From positions 5,459 to 69,458 of the IMG/VR virus record IMGVR_UViG_3300032252_000001: 64,000 nt of DNA; one strand, given 5' to 3'. Source of the DNA: a virus. A program made the position numbers and the translations under genes. Under the pieces are notes generated by a model. It had not been told where the DNA came from and did no database searches. It worked only from the letters and a program-made list of their open reading frames with translations. Each line of letters opens with the position of its first letter. Position 1 is the first letter of the stretch. Shown here one piece after another: positions 2,999 to 53,247 of the stretch.

Positions 2999-3076
2999 TG
3001 GAGTCGCTGCCCGGACTCGAACCGGGACCGCTGGGATTGAAAGCCCACCGCTCTACGCTATTTGAGCTACAGCGAC
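2999..3076 (-). tRNA. tRNA, most likely Glu(TTC), with atypical anticodon arm and encoded CCA
   Basis: GTCGCTG/CAGCGAC acceptor stem, GCTC/GAGC D stem, CCCGG-TTCGAGT-CCGGG T arm, 3' T-CCA; anticodon arm GTGGG-CTTTCAAT-CCCAG. Confidence 0.8.
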
Positions 3077-3572: not shown

Positions 3573-4528
3573 TAGCTGCCCTCTTTGTCTTTGCTCAGTG
3601 CCTTGAGTGCGGCAGCTCGGCGTGCGGCATCAGCTTCCTCCTTCTCTTTTTGCTCGGCCCGGAGTCTGGCCGCTTCCCGCTTTAGTCGCTCAAGTTCTGC
3701 CTGCTTGTCTTCGTGATCAGCTTTGAGGGACTCAATCAGGGTCTGCTGTTGTGCGTATCGGTATTCTTGCTGCTCGGCAAGGTCTTCCAGCTCTTCCTTG
3801 GAGACCTGAGCCACCACCATCTCGTTGTACTCTTCCTGCGTAACATACACGCCATCTTGCTCCATGGGCGGCGGCGGTGCGGCAGCTGGTGCAAGGTGGG
3901 CAAGATCGATCTTCATGGGCCTGTCATCACCGAACTCGAAACCGAAGCTCGCACGTGCCGCTGTCTCACCACCTGAATGACCCATGGCGAACGTGAGGCC
4001 AGCATTGTTGTCTCTGTTGAACATGTACGCATAACCAAAGCCGATGGCTGTCTTGCCCTCGATTGTGGCCATGTTCAGGTGCAGGCGTGAGTTCTGGTAC
4101 TGCGGCAGGTGAGTCTCCATCGCTGCCTGTGCAGCCGCAGCCTCGCGCATGTCTTCGCGCCAATTACGGATGGTCTGGAACTCAGTGCGCGTCTCAGTGA
4201 TCCACTCAGTGGGAACTTCACCCGGCTCTCCCTGTGGACCTTGCGGACCCATAGGTCCCGGTGGCCCCTGTGGTCCCGGTGGTCCAGCTGGACCCGGTGG
4301 GCCTTCAGGTCCGGGTGGGCCAGCTGGTCCCGGTGGGCCTTCAGGTCCGGGTGGGCCAGCTGGTCCCGGTGGACCTTCATCACCCGGATAGGTGCAACCT
4401 ACCTCTTGGAATCTTGGGTGATTACAGTCTTCCCAGTCCGTTCCATAGGCCAGCTGAATACACGCCAGCCAAAACATCGCGACGAGAAGCAGCCCTACAG
4501 CAACCGTTCTTGCTTGCCTTCGTACCAC
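3572..4528 (-). CDS. collagen-repeat protein with YadA-like beta-anchor and C-terminal coiled coil
   Basis: Signal-peptide-like N-terminus (GTG 4528 after AAGGGG; ORF extends to 4612); (GPP/GPA/GPE)n; AAAAQAAM...TAIGFGYAY...ASFGFEF resembles trimeric autotransporter anchor. Confidence 0.7.
4220..4381 (-). repeat. collagen G-X-Y coding tandem repeats, including near-perfect 36-bp units
   Basis: GGTCCCGGTGGGCCTTCAGGTCCGGGTGGGCCAGCT repeated; encodes [12 protein letters not shown]. Confidence 0.9.
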
Positions 4529-19247: not shown

Positions 19248-19534
19248 TTACCACCGTCCTTGTCAGGCTGCCCCCAGTAGCTCTCGACCAGCTCTTTCAG
19301 AACCTTCGTTAATATACCAAGGATGATCGCCGGGAATCCTGCAATCGCCCCTGCTGCGACTGAGCCAACAATTGGGTCCTGCGGCAGCACATTCCAATCA
19401 AACGCAATGAACCACGTCACTACGAACTTCCACGCATAAATGAAGAACGTGAAATACGTCACCAGAACAATACGCGGCACCACGCGGTACGCATTGATCA
19501 TCTCCGCGTAGAAGCGACAGCGCTGCTCGTTCAT
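19244..19534 (-). CDS. putative holin
   Basis: 96 aa with two TM segments, directly after the endolysin. Confidence 0.6.
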   Translation of the reverse strand: MNEQRCRFYAEMINAYRVVPRIVLVTYFTFFIYAWKFVVTWFIAFDWNVLPQDPIVGSVAAGAIAGFPAIILGILTKVLKELVESYWGQPDKDGGK

Positions 19535-19968
19535 TGAAACGGCCCCTTGTACTCGAAGTGGGGCAGGTCATCGAAGTTCTGGTCATCGAGGATGATCTGG
19601 TCCTCATCCCAGTTACCGCCCCAGCGGATGTCGAAGCCAAGCGTGCGACCGATACCGATCACCAGCCCAGCCATGTAGATGAAACGCTTCGCGTCGTTCC
19701 AGTCAATCGGGTAAGGCGCTACGTCTACCGCAGTGGATAGCCAGTCTTCCATCTCGTTACCAGCACGATCATGCGGTGGGTTGTGCTTCGACTCACCCGG
19801 CCCGACCTTCGTCTTGCCCTGCCGTAGCAGCTCAGCCTGACGCTCCCATGAGCGGCGACCTTCGAGGATCGAGATATCGAACTCCTTGACCACGATCTCC
19901 ATGACCTTCACCAGCTCAGGACATACAGTGTCCAGCTGCGCTCGTGAGTCTGTTCCAAATGACGGCAT
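19531..19968 (-). CDS. endolysin, peptidase M15 (L-Ala-D-Glu peptidase) family
   Basis: EGRRS..RQ, SKHN...AVDVAP, IRWGGNW, DLPHFE. Confidence 0.92.
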   Translation of the reverse strand: MPSFGTDSRAQLDTVCPELVKVMEIVVKEFDISILEGRRSWERQAELLRQGKTKVGPGESKHNPPHDRAGNEMEDWLSTAVDVAPYPIDWNDAKRFIYMAGLVIGIGRTLGFDIRWGGNWDEDQIILDDQNFDDLPHFEYKGPFQ

Positions 19969-22900
19969 TAGGCTTGCTCCCTCGGTTTATAGTTTGCTGC
20001 CTTGGATAAACGATCCAGTTGAGCCGGTGACAGATTATTCACGCCAGCCAACAGCTCGCTCGTCTGCGGTGCCCTTACGCGCAGCTCTTCATTAGCCTCT
20101 GGCGATGTCGAGTTGTAGTTATCAATCAACGTATCGATATTGTTCGATTGAGGCTTGTCGTCTTTGTTCGCGGCTGGCCTGTTCTCATAGGCTTCCTTAA
20201 ATATCTCGTTCTTGTCCAGCTGCAACTCGTCAAGCTCTTTGCGCTTTTGCTTCCGATTCTTATCGGGGTCCATGCGAACTTCTCTAATCTCCTTGTTGAT
20301 GCCAGAGATTTCACGCTTGTAAGACTCAAGCTCTTTTGCACGATCAACGTAATCGCCGTAGTACTCTTCCAATTCATCAAACCGTGGATCATCTTCACCA
20401 CGTTTTGCCTTGTTCATCGAGCCAAGAATCTCAACAGCGGTATTCGCCTCGCGATAGAACTCTTCCTCGTAGCGGGTACGTCGCGGCCTGTCACCACGGT
20501 AGATGCGGCCCAGTACCGGAAGATCGGATAAATCCCAATCAGGCGCAACCGGATAGTCCATAAGGTGGCGCATACCAACGTCTGAGATATTCAAAAGCAT
20601 CCGTCCTATCGTTCCGGTGTAGCCGTTCCACGCATGTTCCAGCTGCTTCGGTGACTTGATGTCTCCGTACCACTTGGTATTAACGCCCTCGGGGAAGAGT
20701 GCAGACAGCGCCCGCATCGTTTCACTGGTGTAGACCGAATGACGATCTTCCGGCAGCATGTTCCGTTCATACGGAGACTCGATGCTGCGCTTGCGGAAGA
20801 AGTCGTAGTTCGCTGCGATCTCTATTGCAGGCTTTGCAATCTGAGGTATTGGGTTCATGTTGAATGTCTCCAACATCATGTGCCCAAGCCTGCGCATCAG
20901 GAACTTGCCAGCGTCTGTCTCATCGCTATAGATCGCTTCCATGATCCGCTCTGGCAGCGTATTGAAGATGGCACCCACCTCGAATCCCTTCGGCAAACGG
21001 AAGTGCTGATCGCCTATCCACCAGTGGAAGTATGCGTCTTTGTCCCAGTCTTCCAGCTCATCGTAACGCGGGTCGTCGCGGTAACGCAGCCACAGCGCTA
21101 TACCTGCGACACCAATCAACATACCCTTCGCAAAGAATGCTTTGGGGTTCTCCGCAGCACCTCGACCAAGCCTGTGCAGGCCCTGCAATCGAGCGCCCAT
21201 AAACGGTACTGTCTGAATCAACAGCTGGATTGCTGCCGAATCACCGCTCATCGAAAAGTCCATGATGTCTTTGGCTTCGTAAAGCGCTTCCAAGTCTGAC
21301 TTGCCAGCAGCCTTCGCTGCCTGATAAATAGCAATGCGGTTAGCGTTCTCTGTTGCAGACCCAAGCCGCTTCCATGCGTTGAGCATCTTGCGCGGCGTAT
21401 TCAAAAGCGTCTTCTGGAAACCCGCATCTTTCATCTTCGACTGGATGTACTTATGCGTTGACTTCGGGTCGCCCTGATTGATCAGGCCAGACTCAAATGC
21501 TGCGCCAGACGCAACCATTGCCTTGTACGTGTCACCCTCAGTAATTGCTTCCTTGAACCCTTTCACACCACTCACCATCGGGACGAAATGGTCTCGGCTC
21601 AGAACGTACGCTGACATGGAGTCACGAATGTAGTTCGCCAGCATGAAGCCGGGATCGAGGGTAATGGATGCCGTCAAGAAACGCTTGCTGAAGCGAGCTG
21701 GTTTCATTATGGGGTTTAGCCAAGCCCCGAAGGCTTCCATATTGACAGCAGCCAACGACCTAAATAGCAGCTCATCTTCTGTGCGGTAATACTCTTTCTT
21801 GCCGTCACGGAGTATCGAGATAACGCCAGCACCCACATCCGGCACCGCCGAGAACATGGTTTGCAAACCAAGCTGAACCTGTTCCTCAAGGTCGTCCAGA
21901 TTCATCTCGTTTCGAGCCAGCACCCTCCTGATGTCTTCCATATCGACAGGTGGCTGATTGATCTTCTCTTGCCGCATCAGGCCAGTCGGCACCAGCGTAT
22001 CAACCACATTCCTTGCGGCGTTGTTCTTTATCGACGCATCCATCAAGTTGGTAGCATTTATAAAAATGTTATGAACCAAGTCGCCAACATTCTGGGTGCC
22101 ACCCTTGAGGTGCTTAGCAGCAGGCGAGTTCTGGTTTGCAACACCGTTTGTTTTTGCGAGCGGCCCCACAAGACGGTCATCAGCGATACGATAAAACGGA
22201 ATGTAGTCGGCCTCTTCCCATAGCGGTCGTGTTTCTGGGTTGATAACGCCAGCTTCTTCTGCGAAGTCCAACATCTTTTTGTTGAAGTCAGCATAGTCTT
22301 CAGCAACCTGTTGGAACGATGGGAAGTCATCGCCAAACTTTATTAGCTCTTTAATATCAGCGGGAGTGAAGTTGCGCTCACGCCCAGCATTGATCAGCCG
22401 TTTGATGGCTGTGTTCACATTAACTGGAAGGCCGTTCGCAGGTTCACGTTCCTCTGCAATCTGTGCTTCGGTTTTTCGTAACGAGTCCTTGGCAAGCTGG
22501 TCCTCGAAAGCCTCTTCGGCCTGCATCTTCGAGAGGCCCTCGGACTTCATTCGGCTTTTAACCCATTCTTTTCTTGTGTTCCATGAGGCACCAACCAGAG
22601 ACTCTTCTGTCTCAGCAAACTGATCCACCTTGGTGGCATCAGCCAACAGGTTGAATAGACGCTCATTAGCATCAGCGCCCGGATAGTCACCAGCAGCACG
22701 ATCCAAGATCGCCTTGTCATTTGCCCCAAGTTTCTCGTAGCCCTCCATCAAAAGACGCTTTGCTCGAACACCGGCCATGTACCCGGCCCAGTAGTCAACA
22801 TGATCAGCAACAGGCTCAAGAATCTTCAGTAGACCACGGCCCTCATTAGTAACGACACCGTTACTCCACACCGGATGACCGTACTCAAACACCCCTTTCA

Positions 22901-25900
22901 TAATGGCATCGAGACCGGTGGTCAGCCGCATCAGCTTGTAGCCTTCGCTTGACGAGCCTGTCATATTCAGCGCATACAGAACTCCGTAGAATCTATCGAA
23001 GATGCTAATGTTCATGCTGGCTTTCCATGTTCTGCGCCAGTCATTGAACCTATCCAAGAGACTTGGCTCTTTCGCGCCGATCTTCGACAGTGCGCTCTTC
23101 AGCTGCTTGTTGCTATTGACCTGATACTTGACACCAAGGAAGGGGTTTTGTGGGCGAGAGTGGGCCTTGCGAATCTCGTCATTAAGCGTGATTTGCATTA
23201 CCTTGACACGGCCATCGGTATCGGTTGACTGCGCTTCGAGCCAAGATCGAAGGTGAGTCTCTGCTCTCTCGCGACTTGAAAACACCGTTGGTATGACAAC
23301 ACCGTTGTCTGAGTTCACAATGAACCCATAGTTTTCACCAGTGATCTCATCTATCTTGATGTTTGGGTATTGATCGGTAACGGTCGCTGGAACGGTGTAC
23401 GTTATCCTGCCACCACCGGCATACATGACATCAAGCTCTTTTGTCTTTGTGACCTTTGCCCAGCCCTCTTCTATTTTTAGGCCAAACCGTTTCAGGTAAC
23501 CATTCATTCGCGCCGGAAGCACCATGTCATAGTTGGCCCTGCCGCCCTCGTAGCTTGGGCGAGCAAAGGTGTGCTGGTAATGGCTTGGAGAGGCATGGTC
23601 ATATCTATACGCTGGGCTTCCTGCGTAATAGGTCTTGTTAAACTGGATTGGCCCACCAACGTCCTCTGCGGTAACGGTGCCGCTTGGCGTTGATTCACCC
23701 CCCAGCGTTTTATCACCGTCGTATATTTTTTGCCTGACCTTGTTTGCCTCTTCCTCACTGGCGGCTATCTCAAGGATATTCCCTTCCGTGTCATGAACCA
23801 GCCAGCTTTCAAGTAGCTGCTGCTGGTTGCCAGACCACTTGGTCTTGGAGATGAGTAGCGTTTTATTGCTTGCGGCCTGACCCGAGGTGCGCAGCTTGGT
23901 TGCTATAGCCTCAGCTACATCGCGGCCAACCTGTCGCGCCAAAGAGGGAGAAAAGTAACCCTCATTCTCATTCTCGATTACATCTGGCATGTTGCGATCA
24001 GGGTTGAGTGGCAGCAACCTGTCTTCAGTTATATCAATCCAAAGTGGGTCTTGAAACGTGTCGGCCTTCATAATTATGATGTCGCGCTTTTGGCCACGAA
24101 TACTTTTTTGAACCAGCTCAAACTTCGCTTCATTGGCTGAGTGAACAAAGTACGCAGAGTTTGATGCGGTACGTCCATACCCACCGCGAGAGCCTGACTC
24201 AGAACCCGGTGCCAAATGAATACGCGCATAACCGTTCCGAACGGCCTCTGTGATTGCCCACAGCATCTGTGCTGTGCGCCACTGCTCGTTTTTCTCTATC
24301 AGGTGCTGTTTCTGATAACCGCTTCGTTTATGTGAGTCAATGATGCGCAGGAAGGCGGCTTCCATGTCGTCAAACTCACCGGACTGCATGATCGCATCAA
24401 TGCCATCAAGCGCAGCATCGAACTTCTTGGAATCTTCGGCAACGCCTCTTTTCTTTCTTTCTTCCAGCTCGTCCAGCTCTTTTTGAATCTCCTTACTCGC
24501 ATCACGTGTAATTCCAAAGCTGCGATTATCTGGGAAGACCTCACCAGCGGCTGAGTCAACATCATAATGACTGCCATAGTAATCATAGAGGTAAGCACCA
24601 AAGCCGGTGGTCATCCTCGACCAGCTAAAAACATACAGAGCTTGTCCGTAGTCGCCAGTATCTTCATCAAGAACCTCGTACCAACGCCACCTTGAGCCAA
24701 GTTTTTCTTTCACTATTGCCATTGGGCGATAGTCATTCGGCAGACCATCGCTGCCGAAATTTATTGGAACCCTGAAAGTAAAGACTCCGGGTGATGAGTC
24801 ATTCCACGATTCGGCATAGCGCTCATACCACTGCGGTGTTGGTGTGTCTTCGCTACCACCTTCCTCTTCGTATGATCGCTTTTCAGCAGGCGTAGAGTTT
24901 GCCCATATATCAGCCCAGTCACGCTTCACATATTCTGCAAAGCTCTCAACCCCGTACTTCTCCATAACAGCCAGAGATTCCGCAACAGATAAGCCATTGG
25001 CTCGTTCATCATTCTTATGCTGGAACGGCTCATTCGGGTCGTCGGATACACGAAGATGCGCTGCCTGTATATTTAGTTCGTTACGCCAAACTGACATCCG
25101 GTCGCGCTCATAACTGAAGCGCTGACTAAGCTGCTCTCTTTTCTGGACAATCTTGTTTTCGACCTCCTGCAAGTTTGACTCAGTGGTCTTGGCCCTCATG
25201 AGCTTTTTCAGCTCTGGCAAGAAGTCAGCCTCGAACGCCTCCAGCATTTCATCTGTGCCATAACCCATAACCGACGCTTCGCCAGTGCCGCTTGCATACT
25301 CGACACGTGCCGAGAACTGCCTTGCCCATGGGTTAGCTGCAAAAAGTTTTATCTGATTCCAGATCATCGACGGTTCGATGGCTCGGCCCAAGCTATCAGT
25401 CAGGCGACTAGCTATATCATTGACATCAAGTCTAACTGTTTTTACTTTTTGCTTGGAGATTTCATCAAACCTCTCATTGACCCTTCTCTCGATCTCAAGA
25501 GGGTCAAGGCCAGCAAAGTTTTTCAGGAATGTTGAAAGGCTGCGCTTTGCCAAATCAGGCATGAACGGAATGCGATGACCGGGCATATTGTTTGAATCAG
25601 GACCGCCCAGCTCATTCGAGGTATGAAGTCGGTTCTTTGAAATCACACCATTTTGGTACGCATCATAAATGTTGTAGCCGCCAGTCCTGAGCTTTTCAAT
25701 ATTCTGTTTGAAATCCGTTCTGTTTGACCAGTTCAAAACCTGATCAGCGCGAGATCGGCCAGCCGTCAGAAGCCTGCCAAGAATATTATTCATTGCTCGA
25801 TTGTCATTCCACTCGAACATTCTGGCATCGCCAATGAACCCCATTTTCAGTGGAGATGCCTGAGCAACACGATCCCTCCTTAAGTCATCTTGGTCCTGCT

Positions 25901-28900
25901 GTGGCTGCTCATTATATGAGGCATAATTCAAAAGACCGTCGTCAAGCTCACCTCGCGCCACACCGAGAGCCGTCTCGAAATCATCAACAAAAGGGAACAC
26001 CGTATTGTCCCGGTCATACAGATCAGCAACAAACAGTTGCTTGGCAAGCTCTATGTCTTCATCTTTTAGAAACTCGCCCTTCTCTGGACCGAGAACATCA
26101 TCAAGAAATTCCTGAAACTCATCGTCGTCAATGCGATCCATGGCAAGCTGAAACTCATCAAGGAAAGCACGATCAAGCTCAGATAAATATTCGTTGAGGT
26201 AGCTATTAAACATAGCCTGCAAAGCCCTGCCATCCTCGCTGGCCTGCTTAGCGGCTTCTACCTCTTGTTCTCTGGAAGCGTATCTCTTTGCTCCCCGTTG
26301 TGCGTGATCAGCCTGAGACTCATGCCAATGTAATGCTCGCCCCTGCTTGTCTGGGTTTGGCGCGGTCGGTGCGTTCGTATCAGCATCGTAGTTTTCTGCA
26401 TATCTGACATGACCCCAGACACCAGCGTTTCCCTCATAACCAAAGGAATCGCTTTCGGCTCGATATCTGGCGTAATCAAAGTGATCAGTGGTGACCCCAT
26501 TGGCCGGTGTCTGCCAGAATACTGCGCCCCTGTAAGTGTGAGGGACATTGTAAAGCGGCATCAAAGATGGGTAATAATTTCTTGTCTCGTAATCGGTCTC
26601 TGCCGTGATCCACCTATCAAGGTTCTCGTCATAACCAATGTCTACACCTTGCTCGCGGTCTTTATCCATTTCAGCCCTGATCGCCCTAGCCTGAGCTACT
26701 GGAAGATCGGAGTAGTCATTAAATTGCCCCGGTGGCGGTGAGCCGTATAGTCTCTGGTAGTGAATCCCCCAGTCGAGCGGCACCCGTAATGGTGCGCTTA
26801 CTGAGACTTCATATACTGGCGTTTCAATGCGAGAGGCAAGCCAATCTTTTGGCAGCTGGACCTTCGTCACATCAATGGGCGCATTCTGGATATCGAGAAG
26901 TCTGTTGCGAGCCTTCTCACGTGTCGCCGGATCAGCAGATGCCAAATCTGATAGCGCCTTACCATAGGATTCGGTCAAGGGGTGATTCTCACCCAGTATC
27001 AAATTCAGCGTGGTAAGCACTGGGTTTTGCTGACTCAAAGCGTACCGACCCATGTGAGGAACAAAATCTCCGACATTCAGATTGTTGTTCTGCATCATAA
27101 GTTTTACATCAAGCTGCTCTTCGGTGTAGTTCAGCTCTGACATTGCCATTGTGTCGTTCGCTTCATTAAGCGACTTCATGAACTCGACAAGAGACGCGGC
27201 CTCTTTCTCGGTCATCTGTACACCGGGCTGCTTTAGTTCAGCTACGCGCTTCGCATTGATGCCAAGGCGCTCTGCAAGTCTCTCATCATTTGCTATGGCA
27301 GATGCCATGTCGCCAAAGCGACTTGGCCAGAGCCGTTCCATGAAGCCTGCCGCCTCCAGCTCCATTTCTGATATTGAACCACGAGAGGTTGCAGTTGGTA
27401 GCGCGGCCCTTGCCGCATCCAAAAAGCCTTGGATGCTCGCCACCTCTGGGAACACAGGAATGCGATCCTGATTAAATGCCTCTCCGTACTGGCGCTCACC
27501 AGCCTCGATCTTCGCTTTCTTGGAGCGAATCAGGTTCTCTTTTCTCTGCACCTCTTTCTTGGCTTGAGAGATAACAGACTGCACCTTGCCAGCAAGACCT
27601 CGCTCTTCTTCGCTCATGTTTCCAGTAGCGGCCTCGAACAGAGCCTTCGGGTTATTCTCTCGCTTGAACATACCCATGGCTTTTTTCAGATCGCCACCAG
27701 TAACGCCCTCAGCTTCAAGCCTTGCTTGTTCTTCAGCTTCAAGTCGCTTTGACTCATCCTTGAAATCACCGGGAGTCAGAGGTCTCCAGCCTTCAGGCAT
27801 TGCCTTACCAGTAACCTGCTCATAGGCTTCCGCTAAGGTCGGCACAGGCGGTGCAGGCTGAAGGTCTTCCTCAGTCAGACGCTCTTCTGCCTCACGCTCT
27901 CTGGTGCCGTTCAGCAAAACGTCATGGATAGGCTTTCTGAATATCTCCATGTCGCGCATGTACAGGTTGTGGTTCTGACCTTGGAAGTCTTTGAACTGCC
28001 ACTTCGAGTGACCTTTAACAATGGCATCATGAGATCGAGCAATAATATTCAGAAGGTCCTTATCATTCAGGAACCCTGACCGAGAGCGAATAACAACACC
28101 CGGCTTTCGTTGTTTGCCTTTCTTGTATTTACCTTTTCGGGTGCCTGATGTGCCAACGTAAACAAGACCCTTTTGGTCACCGTTTCCGTAAAGCTCTTTG
28201 CGAGCCTTGTCACGGTAATATTTCGATGGGGAGTTGTACATCCTTCTGCGAGCTGCACGTATCTGAGCGGCCCTGATCTTTCGATCAAACTTGCCCCAGC
28301 CCATTTGGATAAGCTGCTCTTTGAACCATGTGATAAAGCGACGAACAACACTTTGCTGTTCAAGCGTCATGCCCTTCATCTCTGGCTTGCTGAGCAGTTC
28401 CCCAGCGGTCCACGCCATGACCTCTTCACCAAGCAGGGCTTTGTTGGCCCGGTTCAGGTCCTCTCCCTTGTTGATGTCGGTGCGGTAGTTATATCCAAGC
28501 GACCGCAGCGCATCGACAACCTCTGGGAACGCATCAACCATTTCATGCGTCAACTTGATGTACGTCTCGTAGTCTTGTGTTAAACCACGAATACCAAAGT
28601 GCCCAACGGTCTCGTGCATTACCGTGTCTGCAACAACTGTCTGCACATGGTCCTTGGTTAGCTTCTCATCTTCAGCGGCCTCTTCGTTACCAAGATTGTC
28701 GTACCACTTATTCTCGCCACTGTGCTTGAATCGGCCCAGATAAAAATCTGGCATTGGCTTTTCAGTACGCTCTGGCGCAGCAGGCATCTCAAGCTCTTCG
28801 CGCCCCAACAGATTCTTTAACCATCTCTCGTTTTGCAGCAGTTCATACGCCTGACTAGCGGCCCTTTCCCATGACTCATCGGACATATTGTCAGGACGCA

Positions 28901-31900
28901 ACACCCCCTTGTAAGATGCCAAGTCGCCGCCCTCACGCAGCAGCCTCTTGACTGTTATCGAATCGTTAAGAGGTCCTTCCCCACGCTCCTGCGCTAAGGC
29001 AATCAAGCCTTCCGTACCGGTATTGGCAAACACCTCATAAAGATCAGCAAACACCTGCTCTTCGCTAACACCCTTCATCGGGACGTACGCAGCGCCAAGG
29101 GCTGAGGCCGCAGCTTTAATGAACTCCCTGCGGCTCATCTTTGGCATAGCCGCTTCTACGGCTGGTATTGTTTTCTTGTCTTCGGGTATCGTCAGCTTGA
29201 CTGCGCCAGTGGTTGTGTTGCCACCGTACTGCGCCGTCCTTTCACGAAGCGCTTCGACAATTGCGCCGATCTCCTTATCGCCATCCGCTACTTCAGTTCC
29301 AGTAAGCGACAACAGACCGGTCCTGCTGAAGACCAGCGTTGAGCCAGCCTCTGTCGTGGCTGTATAGCTGCCATCGCTTAGAGACTGGATTTGCCCAGTG
29401 ATACTGAACGCTTTGCCCTTGTTTTGGTGAGCGTATGCGCCACCGGGCCGGATTGTGATTTGAGCCTTCTTGGATTTTGGTGTGACCTTCTTTGGCTTAG
29501 CAGAAGGAATAACCTTGTTAGCCTCTGGATCAAATACCAACACGCTACCGTCTTTAAGTTCGACGGTAATTGAATTGATCTCGTCATCCTTCTTTGGCTT
29601 AGCTTTCGTTTCAGCCGTCTCTTGTGGCTTCTCCCAGCGTTTCTGCCGCTCTTGAATTAAGGCTGACTGGAAAAGACGAAGCTCTGTTTCCAGATTGTTT
29701 TGCTTCTCAAAGTTCAGCACCAGCTCTTTGTTGACCGGATGCTCTCTGTTCTCTCGCTTCTCAGGCTTCATCTTTTTGCGCTGTTTGAGAAGGGCCTCTT
29801 CGCGCCTGATGAGCTTGTTAAGTTTTTGTCTGGTTTTTATAGCCTGTGTTTCTAATCGCTTTTCGACCCCGCCCTTCGAGAACGAACCGTAAGGTCTGCG
29901 AGACTCCCACGGAGCAGGTTTCTTTGTGAACGCAGTAACCCGACCAGTCTGAATCTTTCCGTTTTCATCAATGACCTCGACCGTATCGCCTTCCCTGATG
30001 CGATACTTCAATGAGTTCCAGCTGACCGTTTTCATGCCGTACTTCAGGCCGCGCTTCGCCTCTGCAATAATTGCATCAGCAAACAAGAAAACACCGTGTG
30101 ACGGATCGTCCATTGAGAAAATGCCACGAACGTACTGCGCACCAAATGGCAGCGACAGCATTTCATCGAACTGATTTGGCGAAATTTGTTCGAGCTGCGT
30201 GTAGTCGTTTACCAATGTAATTGGTGGGTTGCCCTTGTTCGTTGACGGCAAAAACCCCTCGACCGTCTCTTCGACCCAGCCCATGTGTTCCTCGTCAACT
30301 TCAGGTTGTTTCCCGAACAGCTGACTCTGGTAATACATGTCACCAGAAAGGACATACTGATCCCAATCTTCCTCGACATACGTGCCGGTTGATTTATTTA
30401 GCTGGTCATCATTGAACTTGTCGAAGTCTTTACTCATCGCGAAAAGAGGCATCTGCGGTGAGTCTTCGGCCTGTGTAACCCGAAGCGACGGCGGGGTAGC
30501 GCCTGCAACACGAGAATCCGCACGTTCACCAGAGGTTATGCGACGATCTTTTTCTTCCTGAAGTGCTGCGTCAGCCGAATCAAAGTCAGCCCCATATCCA
30601 ACAGACACCTGAACCTTGACGCTTTTTCCGGCCTCTTCGATACGAGGCAGCTGATTGATTCTCGATACTGCCTTCTCAACAATTGACTGAAGTTTGTCTG
30701 CATCAGGGTGCGTGACAATGAACTCATCGCCACCATACCTGTAGGCTTCCGCACCGCCGCCCATTGAGTTGATCTCATTGGCAATCTGCCGAAGCATTTG
30801 TGTGCCAGCACTATGACTGAGGTTATCGTTGATCCACTTCAGAGCGTCTGCATCAAGGACCGCTACCGGCTTACCTTCGTTTTTATCTTGATTCCACTTG
30901 CGTTTGTTCCAGAGGTTGGTGTCTGGATCACGCATAACCTGCTCTTCAAACTCCTGCTCTGTCAGATGCTGATACGCCTCGCGTAACTTCTTATCTTCGC
31001 GGCGCTCACCACCTGAGTAGCCGGATTCAATCTTGTTCCTCATGTCCACAGCCTGAGCGGCAAGCTCTTCTCTTGCTCGAACTCCACGCTGCGTTAGCAT
31101 GAACGTATCGCCACGCTGGTTCCATGTGCCGTAGCCAGCCTTCGCTAGTTCCTCATACGCTGCCTCATCAAGAATCTCGCCCTTCTGCACAGCAGACATT
31201 TCATCAACTAAGCGCAGGTTCTCATCAATCAAACCAACTTCTCTTTCAACCTGCTTTCTTGCCTCTTCCCTCTCTGCCTGCGCTCTCTTCTCTTCAAGCA
31301 GCTGGCGCTTGGCGAGCTGTCTGCTCTTGCGCCGCTTGGCAATCATCGCAGCATCTTTCTTGTAGCCCTCTACTCTTTTGTCGTGTTCGAGCAGGGCTTC
31401 AGGGCTTGCTCCATTCTTTTCCATCAGGCTGCGAACTCGTTTGCGCACTGACAGGAAGGCGTTGGCTTCTTTCTCTTGAAGGCGCTCCAGCTCGATCATT
31501 GCTGTCACCTGATCCTGTGGTGAAGCGTCCTTTGCAAACTTGGTGTTCGGACCTTTCTTGTTCTGATACTTCCAGCGCTCATTAGCAGCATTAACCCACG
31601 GCTGTGAGTCACGAATGAGCGCGTCATATTCTTTGGCAACGCCAGCGCCCTTGTCGCTTTGTATACCACCAATTGCGCCGTACGGCCCTGACACGAACGC
31701 TGCTGCTGCCATCGCCTCAGCAACACCCTCGAACGGGCCAACCTCTGGATCAACCTTCATCACTTTGAGGTTGCTTGCGATCTGCTCGACGCTTTCCTGA
31801 CCCATCTCCTGAGCAATCTCGCCAATAGCATTCTTGCCCATACGCGCCAGTATGCTGTCCTTCGCTGCCTGACGAGCGCCAGACCGACCTACTGTCTGAC

Positions 31901-33200
31901 CATAGACCGCGCCCATTGGTGTGCCGAGTAGCGCACCAGATATGACCATAGCCATCTCAGCCGCTGAATTGGCATAGCTATAACCGATGAGCTGCTTGGC
32001 CTCTTCCGGCATCAAGCCAGCTGCTACAAAGTTCTGATAGTCCTCGTTCTGGTCCCACTTATCCTGCGTCATTTGGTCGCTTTCAAGACGGCTCTGCGTT
32101 TCATTGAAAACCGCATCACGAATAAGAACCATCTCAGTCGCACCACCGGCAGCTGCACCGCCGACTCGTGCGCCTACCTTCTGTAGCTTTTGAATCTCTT
32201 CCATGGTGGAGAGTGGTCCACCAAACTTCCGAACCGAGTAGCCAGCACCGACCTTACCGCCAATTCTTGAGGAAACAATCATTCCACCGATCATTGGTGC
32301 CTGCTCGATGGTGGCATTAAAGATACCCCTGATACCCTTAGTCTTATCATCAAACGGTGAGAACCACGTCAGCGGGTTCCACGTCGCCTCTGGGTCGAGG
32401 AACGGCAGCTCATCTTCTGCTCGCGCAGCGTCGCTGTATTCCTTACGAAGATCAGCCAGCGACTGGGCCATCTCGTTTGCGGCATCTTCAGCAGCTGCAT
32501 CATCTTCGTACATGATCGGGCGTACAACAGCTTCATAGATACCTTGCGTGTTTGGTATGAAGCCAGCACCGACTGGGGATACACCCTGTGATTTTAGCGA
32601 ACCGCCAATCAGCTCGTCGGCCATAGGGAATGCGGCCTGACCGGTTGGCTCGTTTTCATCGCCCTCTTGATAGCCCATCATTTCTCGGAGCTTCTTGCTC
32701 CAGACGGTTCGCGGGAGCCACTGCCCCTCTTCTTTGTACGTTCCGTAGAAGTCTTGCGCAGCACGGTCAAACTCGCGCCACTCCATCTTACCGACCTTCT
32801 TTCCAGCCAGAGACTCAATACCCGCTATGTCGGGTTCCGGCAGCTGAGCAACAACCTTGTCGAGCGTCATATCACGCAACGATTTTTCGGACTCGCTGCG
32901 AATAACAGGGCCTTGCACAAACTGACGACCACCAATCTTGGCAGCAGTCCACGCATCCCCTAATGCGCCCTTGTTCTGCTGAACAGCAGGCAGCGTTTTG
33001 CCCTGAGCCTCTGCCATGATCTCTTCAAAGGATCGAGTCTCTTGCCTGCGATCACTATGCGTCGTCTCAGCAATAGCTGGCACCTCATCTGGAAGATCAG
33101 GCTCAGGATCAATTTGCTGTTTGACAGCAGCCTCTTTGCCCTTCTGGGCAGCTTCGGCCTCTGCCATGATCTCTTCAAATGTGCGGGTCTTTTCTGCCAT
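19968..33200 (-). CDS. giant polyvalent internal-virion (ejection) protein with GGDEF, zincin-like HExxGH and C-terminal LPD38-like regions
   Basis: 4410 aa; follows ejection-type genes; DADALKWINDNLSHSAG...RYGGDEF; HETVGHFG; DWDKDAYFHWW...RLPKGFEVG. Confidence 0.85.
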   Translation of the reverse strand: MAEKTRTFEEIMAEAEAAQKGKEAAVKQQIDPEPDLPDEVPAIAETTHSDRRQETRSFEEIMAEAQGKTLPAVQQNKGALGDAWTAAKIGGRQFVQGPVIRSESEKSLRDMTLDKVVAQLPEPDIAGIESLAGKKVGKMEWREFDRAAQDFYGTYKEEGQWLPRTVWSKKLREMMGYQEGDENEPTGQAAFPMADELIGGSLKSQGVSPVGAGFIPNTQGIYEAVVRPIMYEDDAAAEDAANEMAQSLADLRKEYSDAARAEDELPFLDPEATWNPLTWFSPFDDKTKGIRGIFNATIEQAPMIGGMIVSSRIGGKVGAGYSVRKFGGPLSTMEEIQKLQKVGARVGGAAAGGATEMVLIRDAVFNETQSRLESDQMTQDKWDQNEDYQNFVAAGLMPEEAKQLIGYSYANSAAEMAMVISGALLGTPMGAVYGQTVGRSGARQAAKDSILARMGKNAIGEIAQEMGQESVEQIASNLKVMKVDPEVGPFEGVAEAMAAAAFVSGPYGAIGGIQSDKGAGVAKEYDALIRDSQPWVNAANERWKYQNKKGPNTKFAKDASPQDQVTAMIELERLQEKEANAFLSVRKRVRSLMEKNGASPEALLEHDKRVEGYKKDAAMIAKRRKSRQLAKRQLLEEKRAQAEREEARKQVEREVGLIDENLRLVDEMSAVQKGEILDEAAYEELAKAGYGTWNQRGDTFMLTQRGVRAREELAAQAVDMRNKIESGYSGGERREDKKLREAYQHLTEQEFEEQVMRDPDTNLWNKRKWNQDKNEGKPVAVLDADALKWINDNLSHSAGTQMLRQIANEINSMGGGAEAYRYGGDEFIVTHPDADKLQSIVEKAVSRINQLPRIEEAGKSVKVQVSVGYGADFDSADAALQEEKDRRITSGERADSRVAGATPPSLRVTQAEDSPQMPLFAMSKDFDKFNDDQLNKSTGTYVEEDWDQYVLSGDMYYQSQLFGKQPEVDEEHMGWVEETVEGFLPSTNKGNPPITLVNDYTQLEQISPNQFDEMLSLPFGAQYVRGIFSMDDPSHGVFLFADAIIAEAKRGLKYGMKTVSWNSLKYRIREGDTVEVIDENGKIQTGRVTAFTKKPAPWESRRPYGSFSKGGVEKRLETQAIKTRQKLNKLIRREEALLKQRKKMKPEKRENREHPVNKELVLNFEKQNNLETELRLFQSALIQERQKRWEKPQETAETKAKPKKDDEINSITVELKDGSVLVFDPEANKVIPSAKPKKVTPKSKKAQITIRPGGAYAHQNKGKAFSITGQIQSLSDGSYTATTEAGSTLVFSRTGLLSLTGTEVADGDKEIGAIVEALRERTAQYGGNTTTGAVKLTIPEDKKTIPAVEAAMPKMSRREFIKAAASALGAAYVPMKGVSEEQVFADLYEVFANTGTEGLIALAQERGEGPLNDSITVKRLLREGGDLASYKGVLRPDNMSDESWERAASQAYELLQNERWLKNLLGREELEMPAAPERTEKPMPDFYLGRFKHSGENKWYDNLGNEEAAEDEKLTKDHVQTVVADTVMHETVGHFGIRGLTQDYETYIKLTHEMVDAFPEVVDALRSLGYNYRTDINKGEDLNRANKALLGEEVMAWTAGELLSKPEMKGMTLEQQSVVRRFITWFKEQLIQMGWGKFDRKIRAAQIRAARRRMYNSPSKYYRDKARKELYGNGDQKGLVYVGTSGTRKGKYKKGKQRKPGVVIRSRSGFLNDKDLLNIIARSHDAIVKGHSKWQFKDFQGQNHNLYMRDMEIFRKPIHDVLLNGTREREAEERLTEEDLQPAPPVPTLAEAYEQVTGKAMPEGWRPLTPGDFKDESKRLEAEEQARLEAEGVTGGDLKKAMGMFKRENNPKALFEAATGNMSEEERGLAGKVQSVISQAKKEVQRKENLIRSKKAKIEAGERQYGEAFNQDRIPVFPEVASIQGFLDAARAALPTATSRGSISEMELEAAGFMERLWPSRFGDMASAIANDERLAERLGINAKRVAELKQPGVQMTEKEAASLVEFMKSLNEANDTMAMSELNYTEEQLDVKLMMQNNNLNVGDFVPHMGRYALSQQNPVLTTLNLILGENHPLTESYGKALSDLASADPATREKARNRLLDIQNAPIDVTKVQLPKDWLASRIETPVYEVSVSAPLRVPLDWGIHYQRLYGSPPPGQFNDYSDLPVAQARAIRAEMDKDREQGVDIGYDENLDRWITAETDYETRNYYPSLMPLYNVPHTYRGAVFWQTPANGVTTDHFDYARYRAESDSFGYEGNAGVWGHVRYAENYDADTNAPTAPNPDKQGRALHWHESQADHAQRGAKRYASREQEVEAAKQASEDGRALQAMFNSYLNEYLSELDRAFLDEFQLAMDRIDDDEFQEFLDDVLGPEKGEFLKDEDIELAKQLFVADLYDRDNTVFPFVDDFETALGVARGELDDGLLNYASYNEQPQQDQDDLRRDRVAQASPLKMGFIGDARMFEWNDNRAMNNILGRLLTAGRSRADQVLNWSNRTDFKQNIEKLRTGGYNIYDAYQNGVISKNRLHTSNELGGPDSNNMPGHRIPFMPDLAKRSLSTFLKNFAGLDPLEIERRVNERFDEISKQKVKTVRLDVNDIASRLTDSLGRAIEPSMIWNQIKLFAANPWARQFSARVEYASGTGEASVMGYGTDEMLEAFEADFLPELKKLMRAKTTESNLQEVENKIVQKREQLSQRFSYERDRMSVWRNELNIQAAHLRVSDDPNEPFQHKNDERANGLSVAESLAVMEKYGVESFAEYVKRDWADIWANSTPAEKRSYEEEGGSEDTPTPQWYERYAESWNDSSPGVFTFRVPINFGSDGLPNDYRPMAIVKEKLGSRWRWYEVLDEDTGDYGQALYVFSWSRMTTGFGAYLYDYYGSHYDVDSAAGEVFPDNRSFGITRDASKEIQKELDELEERKKRGVAEDSKKFDAALDGIDAIMQSGEFDDMEAAFLRIIDSHKRSGYQKQHLIEKNEQWRTAQMLWAITEAVRNGYARIHLAPGSESGSRGGYGRTASNSAYFVHSANEAKFELVQKSIRGQKRDIIIMKADTFQDPLWIDITEDRLLPLNPDRNMPDVIENENEGYFSPSLARQVGRDVAEAIATKLRTSGQAASNKTLLISKTKWSGNQQQLLESWLVHDTEGNILEIAASEEEANKVRQKIYDGDKTLGGESTPSGTVTAEDVGGPIQFNKTYYAGSPAYRYDHASPSHYQHTFARPSYEGGRANYDMVLPARMNGYLKRFGLKIEEGWAKVTKTKELDVMYAGGGRITYTVPATVTDQYPNIKIDEITGENYGFIVNSDNGVVIPTVFSSRERAETHLRSWLEAQSTDTDGRVKVMQITLNDEIRKAHSRPQNPFLGVKYQVNSNKQLKSALSKIGAKEPSLLDRFNDWRRTWKASMNISIFDRFYGVLYALNMTGSSSEGYKLMRLTTGLDAIMKGVFEYGHPVWSNGVVTNEGRGLLKILEPVADHVDYWAGYMAGVRAKRLLMEGYEKLGANDKAILDRAAGDYPGADANERLFNLLADATKVDQFAETEESLVGASWNTRKEWVKSRMKSEGLSKMQAEEAFEDQLAKDSLRKTEAQIAEEREPANGLPVNVNTAIKRLINAGRERNFTPADIKELIKFGDDFPSFQQVAEDYADFNKKMLDFAEEAGVINPETRPLWEEADYIPFYRIADDRLVGPLAKTNGVANQNSPAAKHLKGGTQNVGDLVHNIFINATNLMDASIKNNAARNVVDTLVPTGLMRQEKINQPPVDMEDIRRVLARNEMNLDDLEEQVQLGLQTMFSAVPDVGAGVISILRDGKKEYYRTEDELLFRSLAAVNMEAFGAWLNPIMKPARFSKRFLTASITLDPGFMLANYIRDSMSAYVLSRDHFVPMVSGVKGFKEAITEGDTYKAMVASGAAFESGLINQGDPKSTHKYIQSKMKDAGFQKTLLNTPRKMLNAWKRLGSATENANRIAIYQAAKAAGKSDLEALYEAKDIMDFSMSGDSAAIQLLIQTVPFMGARLQGLHRLGRGAAENPKAFFAKGMLIGVAGIALWLRYRDDPRYDELEDWDKDAYFHWWIGDQHFRLPKGFEVGAIFNTLPERIMEAIYSDETDAGKFLMRRLGHMMLETFNMNPIPQIAKPAIEIAANYDFFRKRSIESPYERNMLPEDRHSVYTSETMRALSALFPEGVNTKWYGDIKSPKQLEHAWNGYTGTIGRMLLNISDVGMRHLMDYPVAPDWDLSDLPVLGRIYRGDRPRRTRYEEEFYREANTAVEILGSMNKAKRGEDDPRFDELEEYYGDYVDRAKELESYKREISGINKEIREVRMDPDKNRKQKRKELDELQLDKNEIFKEAYENRPAANKDDKPQSNNIDTLIDNYNSTSPEANEELRVRAPQTSELLAGVNNLSPAQLDRLSKAANYKPREQA

Positions 33201-34553: not shown

Positions 34554-35531
34554 TTAGCCCCCGCCGGGGGTGCTGCCCTGCGTGAAGAAGTCCGGTACGC
34601 CACTAGCGAAGTTACCAACAGCGCTGCCACCCATCGCGCCACCAGCCCCACCAGCAGCTGCTTTAGCAACACCACCAACAGCCAACGATGTACCGCCAGT
34701 AAAGAACGCACCTACCATGGTTGCCGCAAGACCCAAAGCCTGAGCAACCTCACCGCCACTCTGTTTGCTGGTGGTTTCTTTAGACGTTTGGTAGGAACCT
34801 TTGGTGCCCTCAAGCGCAGCAATAAGACCGCTGAGGTTACGCATATCCCAATCACGCTCTTCAACAAACTGCTGGTAGTCGAAGTCACGCATAGCTTGCT
34901 GAATATTGCGGTCAGTTGCGCCAGTCGTCATCAAGGTAGCAATATCCAGCCTGCTGGCATTGCTGACTGTATCCCCGAGGCTTCTGAAGCGATCAGCCGC
35001 CTGCATGTCTCTGGCTCGCTCGTCACCCCAGATATTCACGGCACTTTCGTATGCCATGGCATACCCCTTGCCGTACAGGTCCTGAACTGACTGAAGGGTC
35101 TTCTCGCGATTCTCAGAGCGCATGAGAGCCGCCCTGCTGCCACCAAAGGCATCCATTGACGCTGACCTTGAGTCAAGCCGGTTCGCCTCTCGCTGGCCTT
35201 CCTCTCGTATCTCGCGAGCCGCTGGGTCTAAAGCACCCTTGATGTACGGGTTCATGTACTGCGACATGTCGGCATCAGCGAACTGCTGAGTGCCACGCTG
35301 GATCATTGCTTCAGACTGATTGAAGTACGGCTGGCCGATGCCCACATTATCGCGAGCCATCTCCATACCCATTCGCTCATTTTCGGAAAGGCCAGCAACA
35401 CGGTCACCCGTATAGGCTTCATATTTCTGACTGCCTATCTTTTGGCCAAGCCTGTTGGCCTGTTTAGCTGAATCTTGAATCCAGCTAGGCGGCTTGTACG
35501 TCTCCGTTGTCTTGCTTTTCTTGCTGCCCAT
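34554..35531 (-). CDS. putative DNA transfer / ejection protein
   Basis: MGSKKSKTT start, YMNPY, AFGGSRA motifs, C-terminal G/A-rich hydrophobic tail. Confidence 0.75.
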   Translation of the reverse strand: MGSKKSKTTETYKPPSWIQDSAKQANRLGQKIGSQKYEAYTGDRVAGLSENERMGMEMARDNVGIGQPYFNQSEAMIQRGTQQFADADMSQYMNPYIKGALDPAAREIREEGQREANRLDSRSASMDAFGGSRAALMRSENREKTLQSVQDLYGKGYAMAYESAVNIWGDERARDMQAADRFRSLGDTVSNASRLDIATLMTTGATDRNIQQAMRDFDYQQFVEERDWDMRNLSGLIAALEGTKGSYQTSKETTSKQSGGEVAQALGLAATMVGAFFTGGTSLAVGGVAKAAAGGAGGAMGGSAVGNFASGVPDFFTQGSTPGGG

Positions 35532-35991
35532 CCTGCTCACTCCTTCTGGTCCTGATAAAGTCACCACCAATGTAGTGGTAACCCTCCATCTGGAATAAAC
35601 GGTCTTTCAAGAAAACGTCTTTGTCACCAGCCGACACACCAGCAAGAATTGGTGCATCGTGTGAGTCAGCGAATGCGTGACATCCCTTGATAAGCGCATC
35701 GAATGCCCCACCCTTGCGGAATTTCTTCTGCACGAACAGCCATTCCAGATACATGAATTGCTCTGGCGACCACGGAAAATTGTAGTTGGTCAATGCTAGT
35801 GTTCCCACTATCCGACCGGACACATCAGCTACTATGACGTAGCCTTCTGTCAGGGTGCGGGTGACCCACTTCAAACCCATGTGCTGATCGACGGATGGGT
35901 AAACGCCTGATTCGTCGTGTGCTGCGGTGAGAAGCCGCACCAGATTCGACGTGTCCAAGGGCTTAGCCTGTCTGATCTTAATAGTCGTCAT
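35485..35991 (-). CDS. GNAT-family acetyltransferase
   Basis: IRQAK..D, LFVQKKFRKGGAFDALI acetyl-CoA motif A, FQMEGY. Confidence 0.85.
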   Translation of the reverse strand: MTTIKIRQAKPLDTSNLVRLLTAAHDESGVYPSVDQHMGLKWVTRTLTEGYVIVADVSGRIVGTLALTNYNFPWSPEQFMYLEWLFVQKKFRKGGAFDALIKGCHAFADSHDAPILAGVSAGDKDVFLKDRLFQMEGYHYIGGDFIRTRRSEQDGQQEKQDNGDVQAA

Positions 35992-52332: not shown

Positions 52333-53247
52333 TTAGGCGTTGCCGCTTGAGCCGAATGCTCCACGATAGTCAGACCAGCCAAACGAGTAGCGTTCACGCG
52401 CCTTGTAGCGCATGTTGCCTGTCTCAAAGTCACCTTCGAGACCACGTTGGATGTTCTTCCTGATCATGTGCTTCAGACCGTCCTGCTGATCCGTGATGAT
52501 GTACCACGCATTGGCATCCGTGAGACGGTGGTTCTTATAGCAACCACCCGGAAGCATCCCCATCTGCTTCATAGCGTTTACGTCATTGTCAGCCGTGCCG
52601 GGACGGTACGGGCTGGTCAACAGACGTTCGGCCACGAACATCAGATCGGGTGGAACGATCAGCTTCTGCGCACGTACTGCAATCGGAATGCTGCGCTCAT
52701 CGACAAACTTGCTGATTGCGATGAAGGCTTCCTCAAGGGAAGTCTCCGACAAGTCAGCCTGCGTCGTGAACGTGTTCGACTGCGTACCACCGCCGAAGAG
52801 CGGATGAGCCGTGCTGAACAATGCAACTCCATCACCACCGGGGAAACCAGCGGAGAAGCCGTTATTCAGAACTGCTGCACCTTTAACTTCTTTGGTGTGC
52901 TGCATCGAGCGAGCCAGCGCCTTGGAGTACTTGCTGCCGATAGAGCCGTAGAGGTTGTCTTCCTCTGCCTCTTCCGTCAGTGAGAACGCCAGAGCAATCG
53001 TCTCGTGGACGTAACGCGAGACGAATGCCTCACCACCGCTGTCGTATGACACCGGAGCGCCCTCTGGCTTAACAGGCGCACCTGCCAGACCAGCGAGCAA
53101 TACGTCTTCCTCGTATGCTTTGCTTGAGCTTTCGACTGCGAAAATAGGTCTCCATTCCTGCTCGTAACGCTTGTACTCCATTCCGAATACAGTGTTGAGA
53201 CCTTCCTGTAGCTGCTTTCTAAAGCGAGCGCGATTCATGATAGCCAT
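52333..53247 (-). CDS. major capsid protein
   Basis: 304 aa; GLNTVFG.EY, HETIALAF, GDGVALFS.AHP, DFETGNMRYKARERYSFGWSD. Confidence 0.9.
   Translation of the reverse strand: MAIMNRARFRKQLQEGLNTVFGMEYKRYEQEWRPIFAVESSSKAYEEDVLLAGLAGAPVKPEGAPVSYDSGGEAFVSRYVHETIALAFSLTEEAEEDNLYGSIGSKYSKALARSMQHTKEVKGAAVLNNGFSAGFPGGDGVALFSTAHPLFGGGTQSNTFTTQADLSETSLEEAFIAISKFVDERSIPIAVRAQKLIVPPDLMFVAERLLTSPYRPGTADNDVNAMKQMGMLPGGCYKNHRLTDANAWYIITDQQDGLKHMIRKNIQRGLEGDFETGNMRYKARERYSFGWSDYRGAFGSSGNA

Follow-up and report, generated by a model that had tools for sequence, protein, structure and literature searches.

A GGDEF domain with threonine at the base-reading position in a giant, predicted virion protein of an uncultured tailed phage

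Can a tailed phage deliver into its host, along with its DNA, an enzyme that makes a cyclic dinucleotide and, if so, which one? The question is raised by a very large gene in IMG/VR virus record IMGVR_UViG_3300032252_000001, a 69,458-bp record of an uncultured tailed phage whose completeness is rated 99%; 64 kb of it, termed here the window, was analysed. The gene encodes a protein of 4410 amino acids (aa), P0001, with a GGDEF domain in which threonine stands where canonical diguanylate cyclases have the aspartate that reads guanine. A first-pass annotation of this DNA had proposed that the phage injects the domain as an uninhibited cyclase of Hypr type, accepting ATP as well as GTP, and so rewires host signalling. 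What that annotation observed is confirmed here and what it made of the observation is partly supported: we give a probability of about 0.45, a little short of even, to an active cyclase of altered specificity in a virion protein, all parts taken together. The novelty attached to the find was overrated, since Iyer 2017 (PMC5512222), in its passages on GGDEF domains, already has phage polyvalent proteins with such domains and proposes that their cyclic-nucleotide signals are used by the invader. An injected polyvalent protein with a GGDEF domain (Iyer 2017) and annotated stand-alone phage GGDEF proteins (YuA gp44) are thus in print; the Thr, Ser and Asn variants and the repeated switching among them are new as far as literature searches reach.

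The GGDEF domain and its active site

The gene and the parts of the domain are located as follows.

19968..33200, minus strand: gene for the giant polyvalent-type protein P0001 (4410 aa), a single open frame
30516..30941, minus strand: GGDEF domain, about aa 754-895, in a minimal version (alpha1 short, RxxD absent, Pro-Pro tail)
30900..30929, minus strand: D758-P-D-T-N-L-W-N-K766-R767, equivalent to the DxLTGLxNRR turn (opposite DELTGLFNRR in 4wxo and DPLTGLPNRR in 4urs)
30801..30854, minus strand: D783-A-D785-ALK788-WIN791-D792-NLSH796-SAG-T800, the metal-, phosphate- and base-binding segment
30801..30803, minus strand: Thr800, codon ACA, the base-specificity position (Asp in canonical cyclases)
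30750..30761, minus strand: G814-G-G-A817, at -9 to -6 before GGDEF, where the RxxD inhibitory site (I-site) would sit
30720..30734, minus strand: GGDEF catalytic motif, aa 823-827 (G824, D825, E826 and F827 invariant in a 33-row alignment)
30522..30551, minus strand: last-helix span K884-R893, whose end residues correspond to the phosphate-binding Lys and Arg of canonical domains; the clade's G..PP tail follows

The protein holds a genuine, full GGDEF domain. The Pfam profile (PF00990) scores 46.9 bits over aa 767-871 (E 3.2e-12; cut-off 23.8), and TIGR00254 scores 47.7 bits over aa 753-871 (cut-off 37.4); the AlphaFold2 model of aa 735-905, made from the 33-row alignment, has a mean predicted local distance difference test score (pLDDT) of 94.3 and a predicted template-modelling score (pTM) of 0.87. 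These are the profile and structure checks that the first-pass annotation had proposed, and the stretch that it had assigned to the domain (30541-30935, aa 756-886) falls within the limits found. Foldseek against the PDB gave 120 matches at E <= 0.001 among 500 counted; every listed match is a protein with a GGDEF domain, and almost every one bears the name diguanylate cyclase; their template-modelling (TM) scores, normalized to the query, are 0.52-0.72. The top listed match is WspR (3bre, E 4.8e-11), PleD (2v0n) being ranked 39. In BFVD nine viral models matched at E <= 0.001, the best of them a segment of another giant viral protein (TM 0.84). The fold is a trimmed one: alpha1 is short past the N-terminal turn, and a conserved G.R..RG..PP tail takes the place of the final strand after the last helix. 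Mean identity of the domain to its relatives is 59%, as against 40.5% for the whole protein compared with 11 close relatives.

Residues were assigned by aligning the protein, with HMMER, to four cyclases of known structure (5euh, 4zve, 4wxo, 4urs). The segment DADALKWINDNLSHSAGT aligns with D.D.FK.(I/F)ND..GH..GD of these enzymes, such that D783, K788, N791, D792 and H796 are kept and T800 lies opposite the Asp of the G-D pair. D783, D785, N791, D792 and G799 are invariant in the 33 rows, as is K884, and R893 is conserved in at least 90% of them. The hallmarks of the family are therefore all present—the active-site hairpin, the metal Asp, the base-contacting Asn and the C-terminal Lys and Arg—while two marks of a canonical diguanylate cyclase are replaced, the guanine-position Asp by Thr800 and RxxD, which is common though not universal, by GGGA. 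On all three points, the intact catalytic residues, the threonine and the missing I-site, the first-pass annotation had read the sequence correctly. RxxD is likewise absent from all 27 domain matches that come from proteins with a specificity residue other than Asp. The PleD equivalents named in that annotation are D327, K332 and others, with D344 as the guanine Watson-Crick Asp; by PleD numbering the cross-dimer position is presumably K766. The candidate cross-dimer residue lies within N765-K766-R767 and is Lys766 or Arg767, the latter conserved in at least 90% of the 33 rows, position 766 being variable. Covariation of Lys766 with the Thr was considered and ruled out: 18 Asp-type proteins also have Lys at 766.

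Substitution at the guanine-reading position is a published mark of Hypr enzymes, as the first-pass annotation held: they have Ser in place of the canonical Asp (Hallberg 2019, eLife), and Ser or Thr there confers specificity for ATP plus GTP and is found in 0.17% of GGDEF domains (Lowry 2022). Characterised Hypr GGDEF enzymes come from Geobacter, Myxococcus and Bdellovibrio, with Cabther_A1065 and Ddes1475 cited as further bacterial examples (Hallberg 2019). The S-to-D change turns Geobacter GacA into a diguanylate cyclase (Hallberg 2019), and S-to-D swaps switch the product in both GacA and Bdellovibrio Bd0367 (Hallberg 2019, Lowry 2022). Natural Ser/Thr enzymes have only GGDE[F/Y], a 'Goldilocks' pairing (Hallberg 2019); the reverse change, D-to-S, inactivated four enzymes with GGEEF (Hallberg 2019). 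P0001 combines Thr800 with the central motif Asp of GGDEF, the two residues expected of a Hypr enzyme. All 14 of the Ser- or Thr-type domains in our survey have.GDEF with this central Asp; so do most of their Asp-type relatives, so that within the clade the motif does not discriminate.

The specificity residue among relatives

Relatives were collected by a HMMER pass over 1.84 billion representatives, which returned 35,759 hits at E <= 1e-3; the best 150 of these were taken into the residue survey. Among these 150, many proteins are 1000-4400 aa long, in the polyvalent range, and others are stand-alone proteins of 155-260 aa resembling YuA gp44. A length-restricted search found 13 other giants (2526-4394 aa) with a GGDEF domain, ten of them with LPD38 as well, and the arrangement seen in P0001, GGDEF at about aa 750-870 and LPD38 C-terminal, is kept on a single polypeptide in relatives down to 45% domain identity. 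From the annotated phage collection 91 records matched, each at less than 36% identity, mostly with small proteins of Pseudomonas Yuavirus and Bordetella Vojvodinavirus whose annotation reads 'diguanylate-cyclase GGDEF domain protein'.

Of 161 related proteins, 138 have D where P0001 has Thr800, 11 have T, 8 have N, and S and H are found in 2 each; the set is biased toward relatives of the Thr-bearing query, and two of its T rows are fragments (756 and 170 aa). When domains are counted instead of proteins (n=225), D is found 198 times, T 12 times, N 11 times, and S and H twice each. Among the close giants, T is found in P0001 to P0005, P0007, P0008 and P0010, S in P0018, N in P0019, and D in P0006, P0009 and P0017. 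Through these changes the flanking S-H-S-A/S-G is unaltered, and the catalytic positions (D783, N791, D792, GGDEF, K884 and R893) are kept in P0001 and in all 13 full-length members of its clade. In a maximum-likelihood tree of the first 1150 residues of 15 giants (1106 columns) the specificity residue must change at least five times, and in a tree of the domain only (160 columns) at least four times. The first-pass annotation had suggested surveying this residue in LPD38-GGDEF homologues, and the outcome was D, T, S and N variants with four to five changes among 15 giants. Codons for D, N, T and S are connected by single-base steps in the standard code. A catalytic apparatus that is fixed around one mobile, base-reading residue argues for an active enzyme whose base specificity shifts, rather than for a decaying domain.

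The two trees disagree on one member. P0017 is sister to P0001, P0002 and P0003 in the long tree (100/100), a grouping that the domain data reject (approximately unbiased test, p 0.0065): its GGDEF domain groups with those of P0006 and P0009. Either the GGDEF module may have been exchanged between related phages or substitutions linked to Asp may have converged. The same three Asp-type proteins (P0006, P0009 and P0017) have Arg at aa 822 (30735-30737), just before GGDEF, where the twelve T-, S- and N-type members have Tyr or Thr; these are the sole Arg at that position among the 225 domains.

Other polyvalent proteins carry two GGDEF domains in tandem (P0021, P0024, P0025 and P0026). Both domains of P0026 have Thr with SGDEF. 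Those of P0021 are dissimilar, one with Asp and GGDEF, the other with Asn and GGDEI, which could make a built-in heterodimer.

The giant protein and its place among virion genes

The remaining features of P0001 and of its neighbourhood are these.

20511..21074, minus strand: LPD38 domain, aa 4043-4230 (Pfam PF18857, E 1.2e-40; phrog_18222, E 1e-85)
21084..21143, minus strand: the sole strongly hydrophobic segment of the protein by Kyte-Doolittle, aa 4020-4039, immediately N-terminal to LPD38
20181-21923, minus strand: conserved C-terminal module containing LPD38, aa ~3760-4340
58690-60357, minus strand: large terminase gene
56251-58686, minus strand: portal gene
52333-53247, minus strand: major head protein gene
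34554..35570, minus strand: match to 'DNA ejection protein' (phrog_4287, E 3e-14), upstream of the giant gene
19531..19968, minus strand: endolysin gene (phrog_465, E 1.1e-32), adjoining the giant gene downstream

Pfam recognises two domains in the 4410 residues, GGDEF and LPD38, and the rest of the protein has no family match in Pfam, NCBIfam, PADLOC or a sequence search of the PDB. Two unrelated domains, one of them an LPD, on one large polypeptide encoded together with the virion genes of a portal-terminase phage are among the marks of a polyvalent protein (Iyer 2017). The C-terminal module is common to the giant proteins of 61 phage records, among them phages of Aeromonas, Vibrio, Pelagibacter and Bacillus and Escherichia phage PTXU04; more distantly it is related to proteins of DarB-like type in BcepIL02, DC1 and Ralstonia phages (GP4). 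The names given to proteins that carry it vary from phage to phage: virion structural protein, DNA methylase, DarB-like antirestriction protein, RelA/SpoT, portal, large polyvalent protein. The module is one common tail with varied cargos, inconsistently named. We read it as a putative packaging and anchoring part, and the N-terminal two thirds of the protein as probable cargo.

The genes on the minus strand run in the order large terminase, portal, major head, tail genes, ejection-protein match, the 4410-codon frame and endolysin. Three things point to delivery by the virion: the giant gene lies between ejection-protein and endolysin genes, the protein has the LPD38 module as its tail, and a distant relative of DarB-like type has been seen in virions. 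That relative, the 4515-aa gp69 of Burkholderia phage JC1, was found by mass spectrometry in CsCl-purified virions, according to the JC1 paper; its tie to P0001 is through the C-terminal module (E 8e-6). We consider packaging and ejection of P0001 rather likely.

Several observations concern other parts of P0001 and of the window. The stretch of P0001 at aa ~1200-1500 (~28700-29600, minus strand) is mostly gapped in 11 relatives (59-79% gaps) and looks, from the alignment, like a piece inserted from another gene. Within it lies a string resembling a twin-arginine signal, SRREFIKAAASALGAAYVP, with RREF at aa 1357; P0002 has a comparable string, NRREFLK. A zincin peptidase was considered and rejected: the candidate string is HETVGH (HExxxH), there is no HExxH anywhere in the protein and no peptidase family matches. 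An acetyltransferase-like gene (35485-35991, minus strand; phrog_1249, E 5.8e-15) lies just upstream of the giant gene, surrounded by ejection and tail genes. ARAGORN places at 2999-3076 (minus strand) a tRNA whose anticodon has four bases ('ttca') and to which it assigns no amino acid; Rfam supports a tRNA at 3002-3076 with 50.2 bits. This tRNA might decode quadruplets or be a decoder related to stop codons, or its anticodon loop may simply be odd. The closest terminases, at 46.5% identity, are those of Roseobacter phages CRP-901 and CRP-902, and megablast found no DNA-level relatives among cultured phages.

Predicted activity, alternatives and known systems

If these features are taken together, P0001 is most likely produced late, would enter the virion by means of its conserved C-terminal module and would pass into the cell with the DNA on ejection. 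Once there, or even earlier, at a late stage in the cell that produces it, GGDEF domains would have to pair, two of them joining two nucleoside triphosphates (NTPs) into a 3',3'-cyclic dinucleotide. That the predicted module is enzymatically active is the likeliest part of this scheme, and on the conservation of its active site we regard it as probable. Loss of RxxD would mean no product feedback. Thr800, together with GGDEF rather than GGEEF, suggests a pocket that probably takes ATP besides GTP, although for relaxed purine specificity overall we put the chances just below even. The output could then be a mix of cyclic di-GMP (c-di-GMP), cyclic GMP-AMP in its 3',3' form (cGAMP) and cyclic di-AMP (c-di-AMP), set by the NTP pools, that rewires host second-messenger signalling; judging from the residues present, we would expect a mixed output with a substantial share of c-di-GMP rather than a dedicated cGAMP synthase.

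A number of observations weigh against this scheme. Ser or Thr is insufficient for Hypr activity, because in GSU3350, whose motif is GGDEF, the D-to-S mutant is still a pure diguanylate cyclase (Hallberg 2019). A cross-dimer residue 44 positions upstream tunes the product: it is Arg in 94% of cyclases, Tyr in GacA and Met in Bd0367, the cGAMP-dominant Hypr members have a non-Arg residue (Tyr, Ser, Ala, Gln or Met), and Hypr enzymes with Arg there yield more c-di-GMP (Hallberg 2019; Lowry 2022 for Bd0367). The candidates in P0001 are the cationic Lys766 and Arg767. GacA (6d9m) is hit by phmmer with E of only 1.3e-3 and ranks 37 in Foldseek; since P0001 is no nearer to it than to ordinary cyclases, any Hypr character would be convergent. 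The GGDEF domain is single, with no recognised dimerisation domain beside it. The prediction of a homodimer (two copies of aa 735-905 with two GTP and two Mg) gave 0.01 against a mark of 0.42 and is counted neither way on pairing. A phage-borne reader or eraser was sought as a riboswitch (the tRNA alone passed the Rfam gathering threshold), PilZ or EAL, and none was found; nor did the phage give a second GGDEF domain or any PADLOC match. All 13 close giants are from metagenome sources, cultured phages all being below 36% identity, and the match to the BcepIL02 protein is weak (21.6% identity, E 8e-6) and confined to the C-terminal module. As to the first-pass interpretation, what stands is a complete GGDEF domain without I-site, with Thr, encoded among virion and ejection genes; what does not follow is Hypr activity from the threonine alone.

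One alternative is an ordinary diguanylate cyclase lacking an I-site, in which Thr800 is tolerated and the product, essentially c-di-GMP alone, raises the level of that messenger in the host; motility and pili would go down, matrix would go up and superinfection might be excluded. The behaviour of the GSU3350 mutant and the cationic cross-dimer residue are in its favour, as is the retention of Asp in 138 of the 161 relatives, and phage GGDEF proteins are annotated and discussed as makers of c-di-GMP: few phage c-di-GMP elements are known, YuA's included (Romling 2023), and lysogens of LK3 are hyper-biofilm formers, by correlation only. A constant product, however, is hard to reconcile with four to five changes among 15 sequences in the guanine-reading residue alone, its S-H-S-A/S-G neighbours staying fixed, and the S-to-D swaps in GacA and Bd0367 do change the product. 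We therefore doubt this account, while allowing it more weight than the following two. Alternatively, the fold might have lost cyclase activity and act within the giant protein as a structural element or a binder of nucleotides. There are degenerate GGDEF domains that have taken on other roles (Rao et al.), P0001 offers no partner domain for dimerisation, and D-to-S inactivated canonical enzymes in four of five cases; but the four dead mutants had GGEEF where P0001 has the permissive GGDEF, the clade retains all the catalytic residues, and the domain ranks with the better conserved parts of P0001, all of which makes an inactive fold very unlikely.

An active cyclase could also do its work late in the producing cell, or in a lysogen, rather than at entry, the GGDEF part being left behind or cleaved off before packaging. 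The gene is in the late structural block, so that the enzyme would be in the cytoplasm ahead of packaging; processing prior to packaging is noted for certain polyvalent proteins, DdrB of P1 among them (Iyer 2017); and the stand-alone homologues such as YuA gp44 sit among non-structural genes. Yet N4 virion RNA polymerase is packaged unprocessed (Iyer 2017), JC1 gp69 is seen in virions, though the passage is silent on which part of it, and GGDEF and LPD38 have stayed on one polypeptide even in the relatives with 45% domain identity. Late action alone strikes us as quite unlikely, and entry of the intact protein as the better account of where the cyclase would act.

A broader proposal is that related phages inject synthases in which the base-reading position is a switch (D, N, T or S), each delivering a different messenger in an arms race over dinucleotide sensing, with tandem proteins of P0021 type acting as heterodimers that make mixed dinucleotides. 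We regard this as speculative and unlikely. Were it true, the messenger could be c-di-GMP, cGAMP, c-di-AMP or another, phage by phage. A feedback-free cyclase of Hypr-type pocket borne by a virus, with or without such switching, would be the first instance of a virus supplying, rather than degrading or sponging, a dinucleotide of second-messenger type or of the type used in cyclic-oligonucleotide-based antiphage signalling (CBASS), for which cGAMP doubles as a signal (Lowry 2022). The first-pass suggestion that the product jams CBASS is doubtful, because supplying the activator 3',3'-cGAMP should trigger cGAMP-dependent effectors. In any case, the D, N, T and S variants that occur naturally in domains otherwise alike amount to an experiment, already set up, on base choice by GGDEF enzymes, and the domain is small (~170 aa) and confidently folded in silico.

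Of the systems already described, the polyvalent GGDEF proteins of Iyer 2017 (PMC5512222) are closest in conception. They too are giant multidomain phage proteins with an LPD domain, encoded in a portal-terminase virion-gene setting; their GGDEF domains, not widespread, are predicted to be injected with the DNA, to synthesise cyclic nucleotides after injection and possibly to disturb host nucleotide signalling. The passages in question differ from the present account in that the product is called cyclic diguanylate or diadenylate and the specificity residue, a Hypr-type variant and switching go unmentioned, and the example discussed, an Acetonema prophage protein, has SNF2, methylase, peptidase and ART domains, none of which is detected in P0001. 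Literature searches, judged by the titles and abstracts listed, gave neither a GGDEF of Hypr type encoded by a phage nor an assay of a phage GGDEF. The bacterial Hypr enzymes GacA and Bd0367 share with P0001 a hydroxyl residue in place of the guanine-reading Asp and GGDEF rather than GGEEF. They differ in that the bacterial enzymes use Ser, are equipped with a receiver domain and a functional RxxD I-site, and place Tyr or Met at the cross-dimer position; P0001, a phage protein that is no close relative of theirs, has Thr and Lys/Arg instead and lacks an I-site.

Among cultured phages, the proteins most like the domain itself are gp44 of Pseudomonas phage YuA and those of Bordetella phages LK3, CN2 and MW2, which have the same minimal form with an N-terminal helix pair, no RxxD and the C-terminal G.R..RG..PP tail, at 30-36% identity. 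Unlike P0001, these are single-domain proteins of 156 aa encoded among early or accessory genes, and YuA gp44 has SGDEF with the canonical Asp. The DarB-like proteins of BcepIL02, DC1 and Ralstonia GP4 resemble P0001 in the tail module only, at 21-23% identity. In size and in position at the end of a morphogenesis block, P0001 is comparable to N4 virion RNA polymerase, P1 DarB and the DarB-like proteins of Bcep22 and JC1; where these carry a helicase, methylase, transglycosylase or RNA polymerase, the cargo of P0001 is a predicted nucleotide cyclase.

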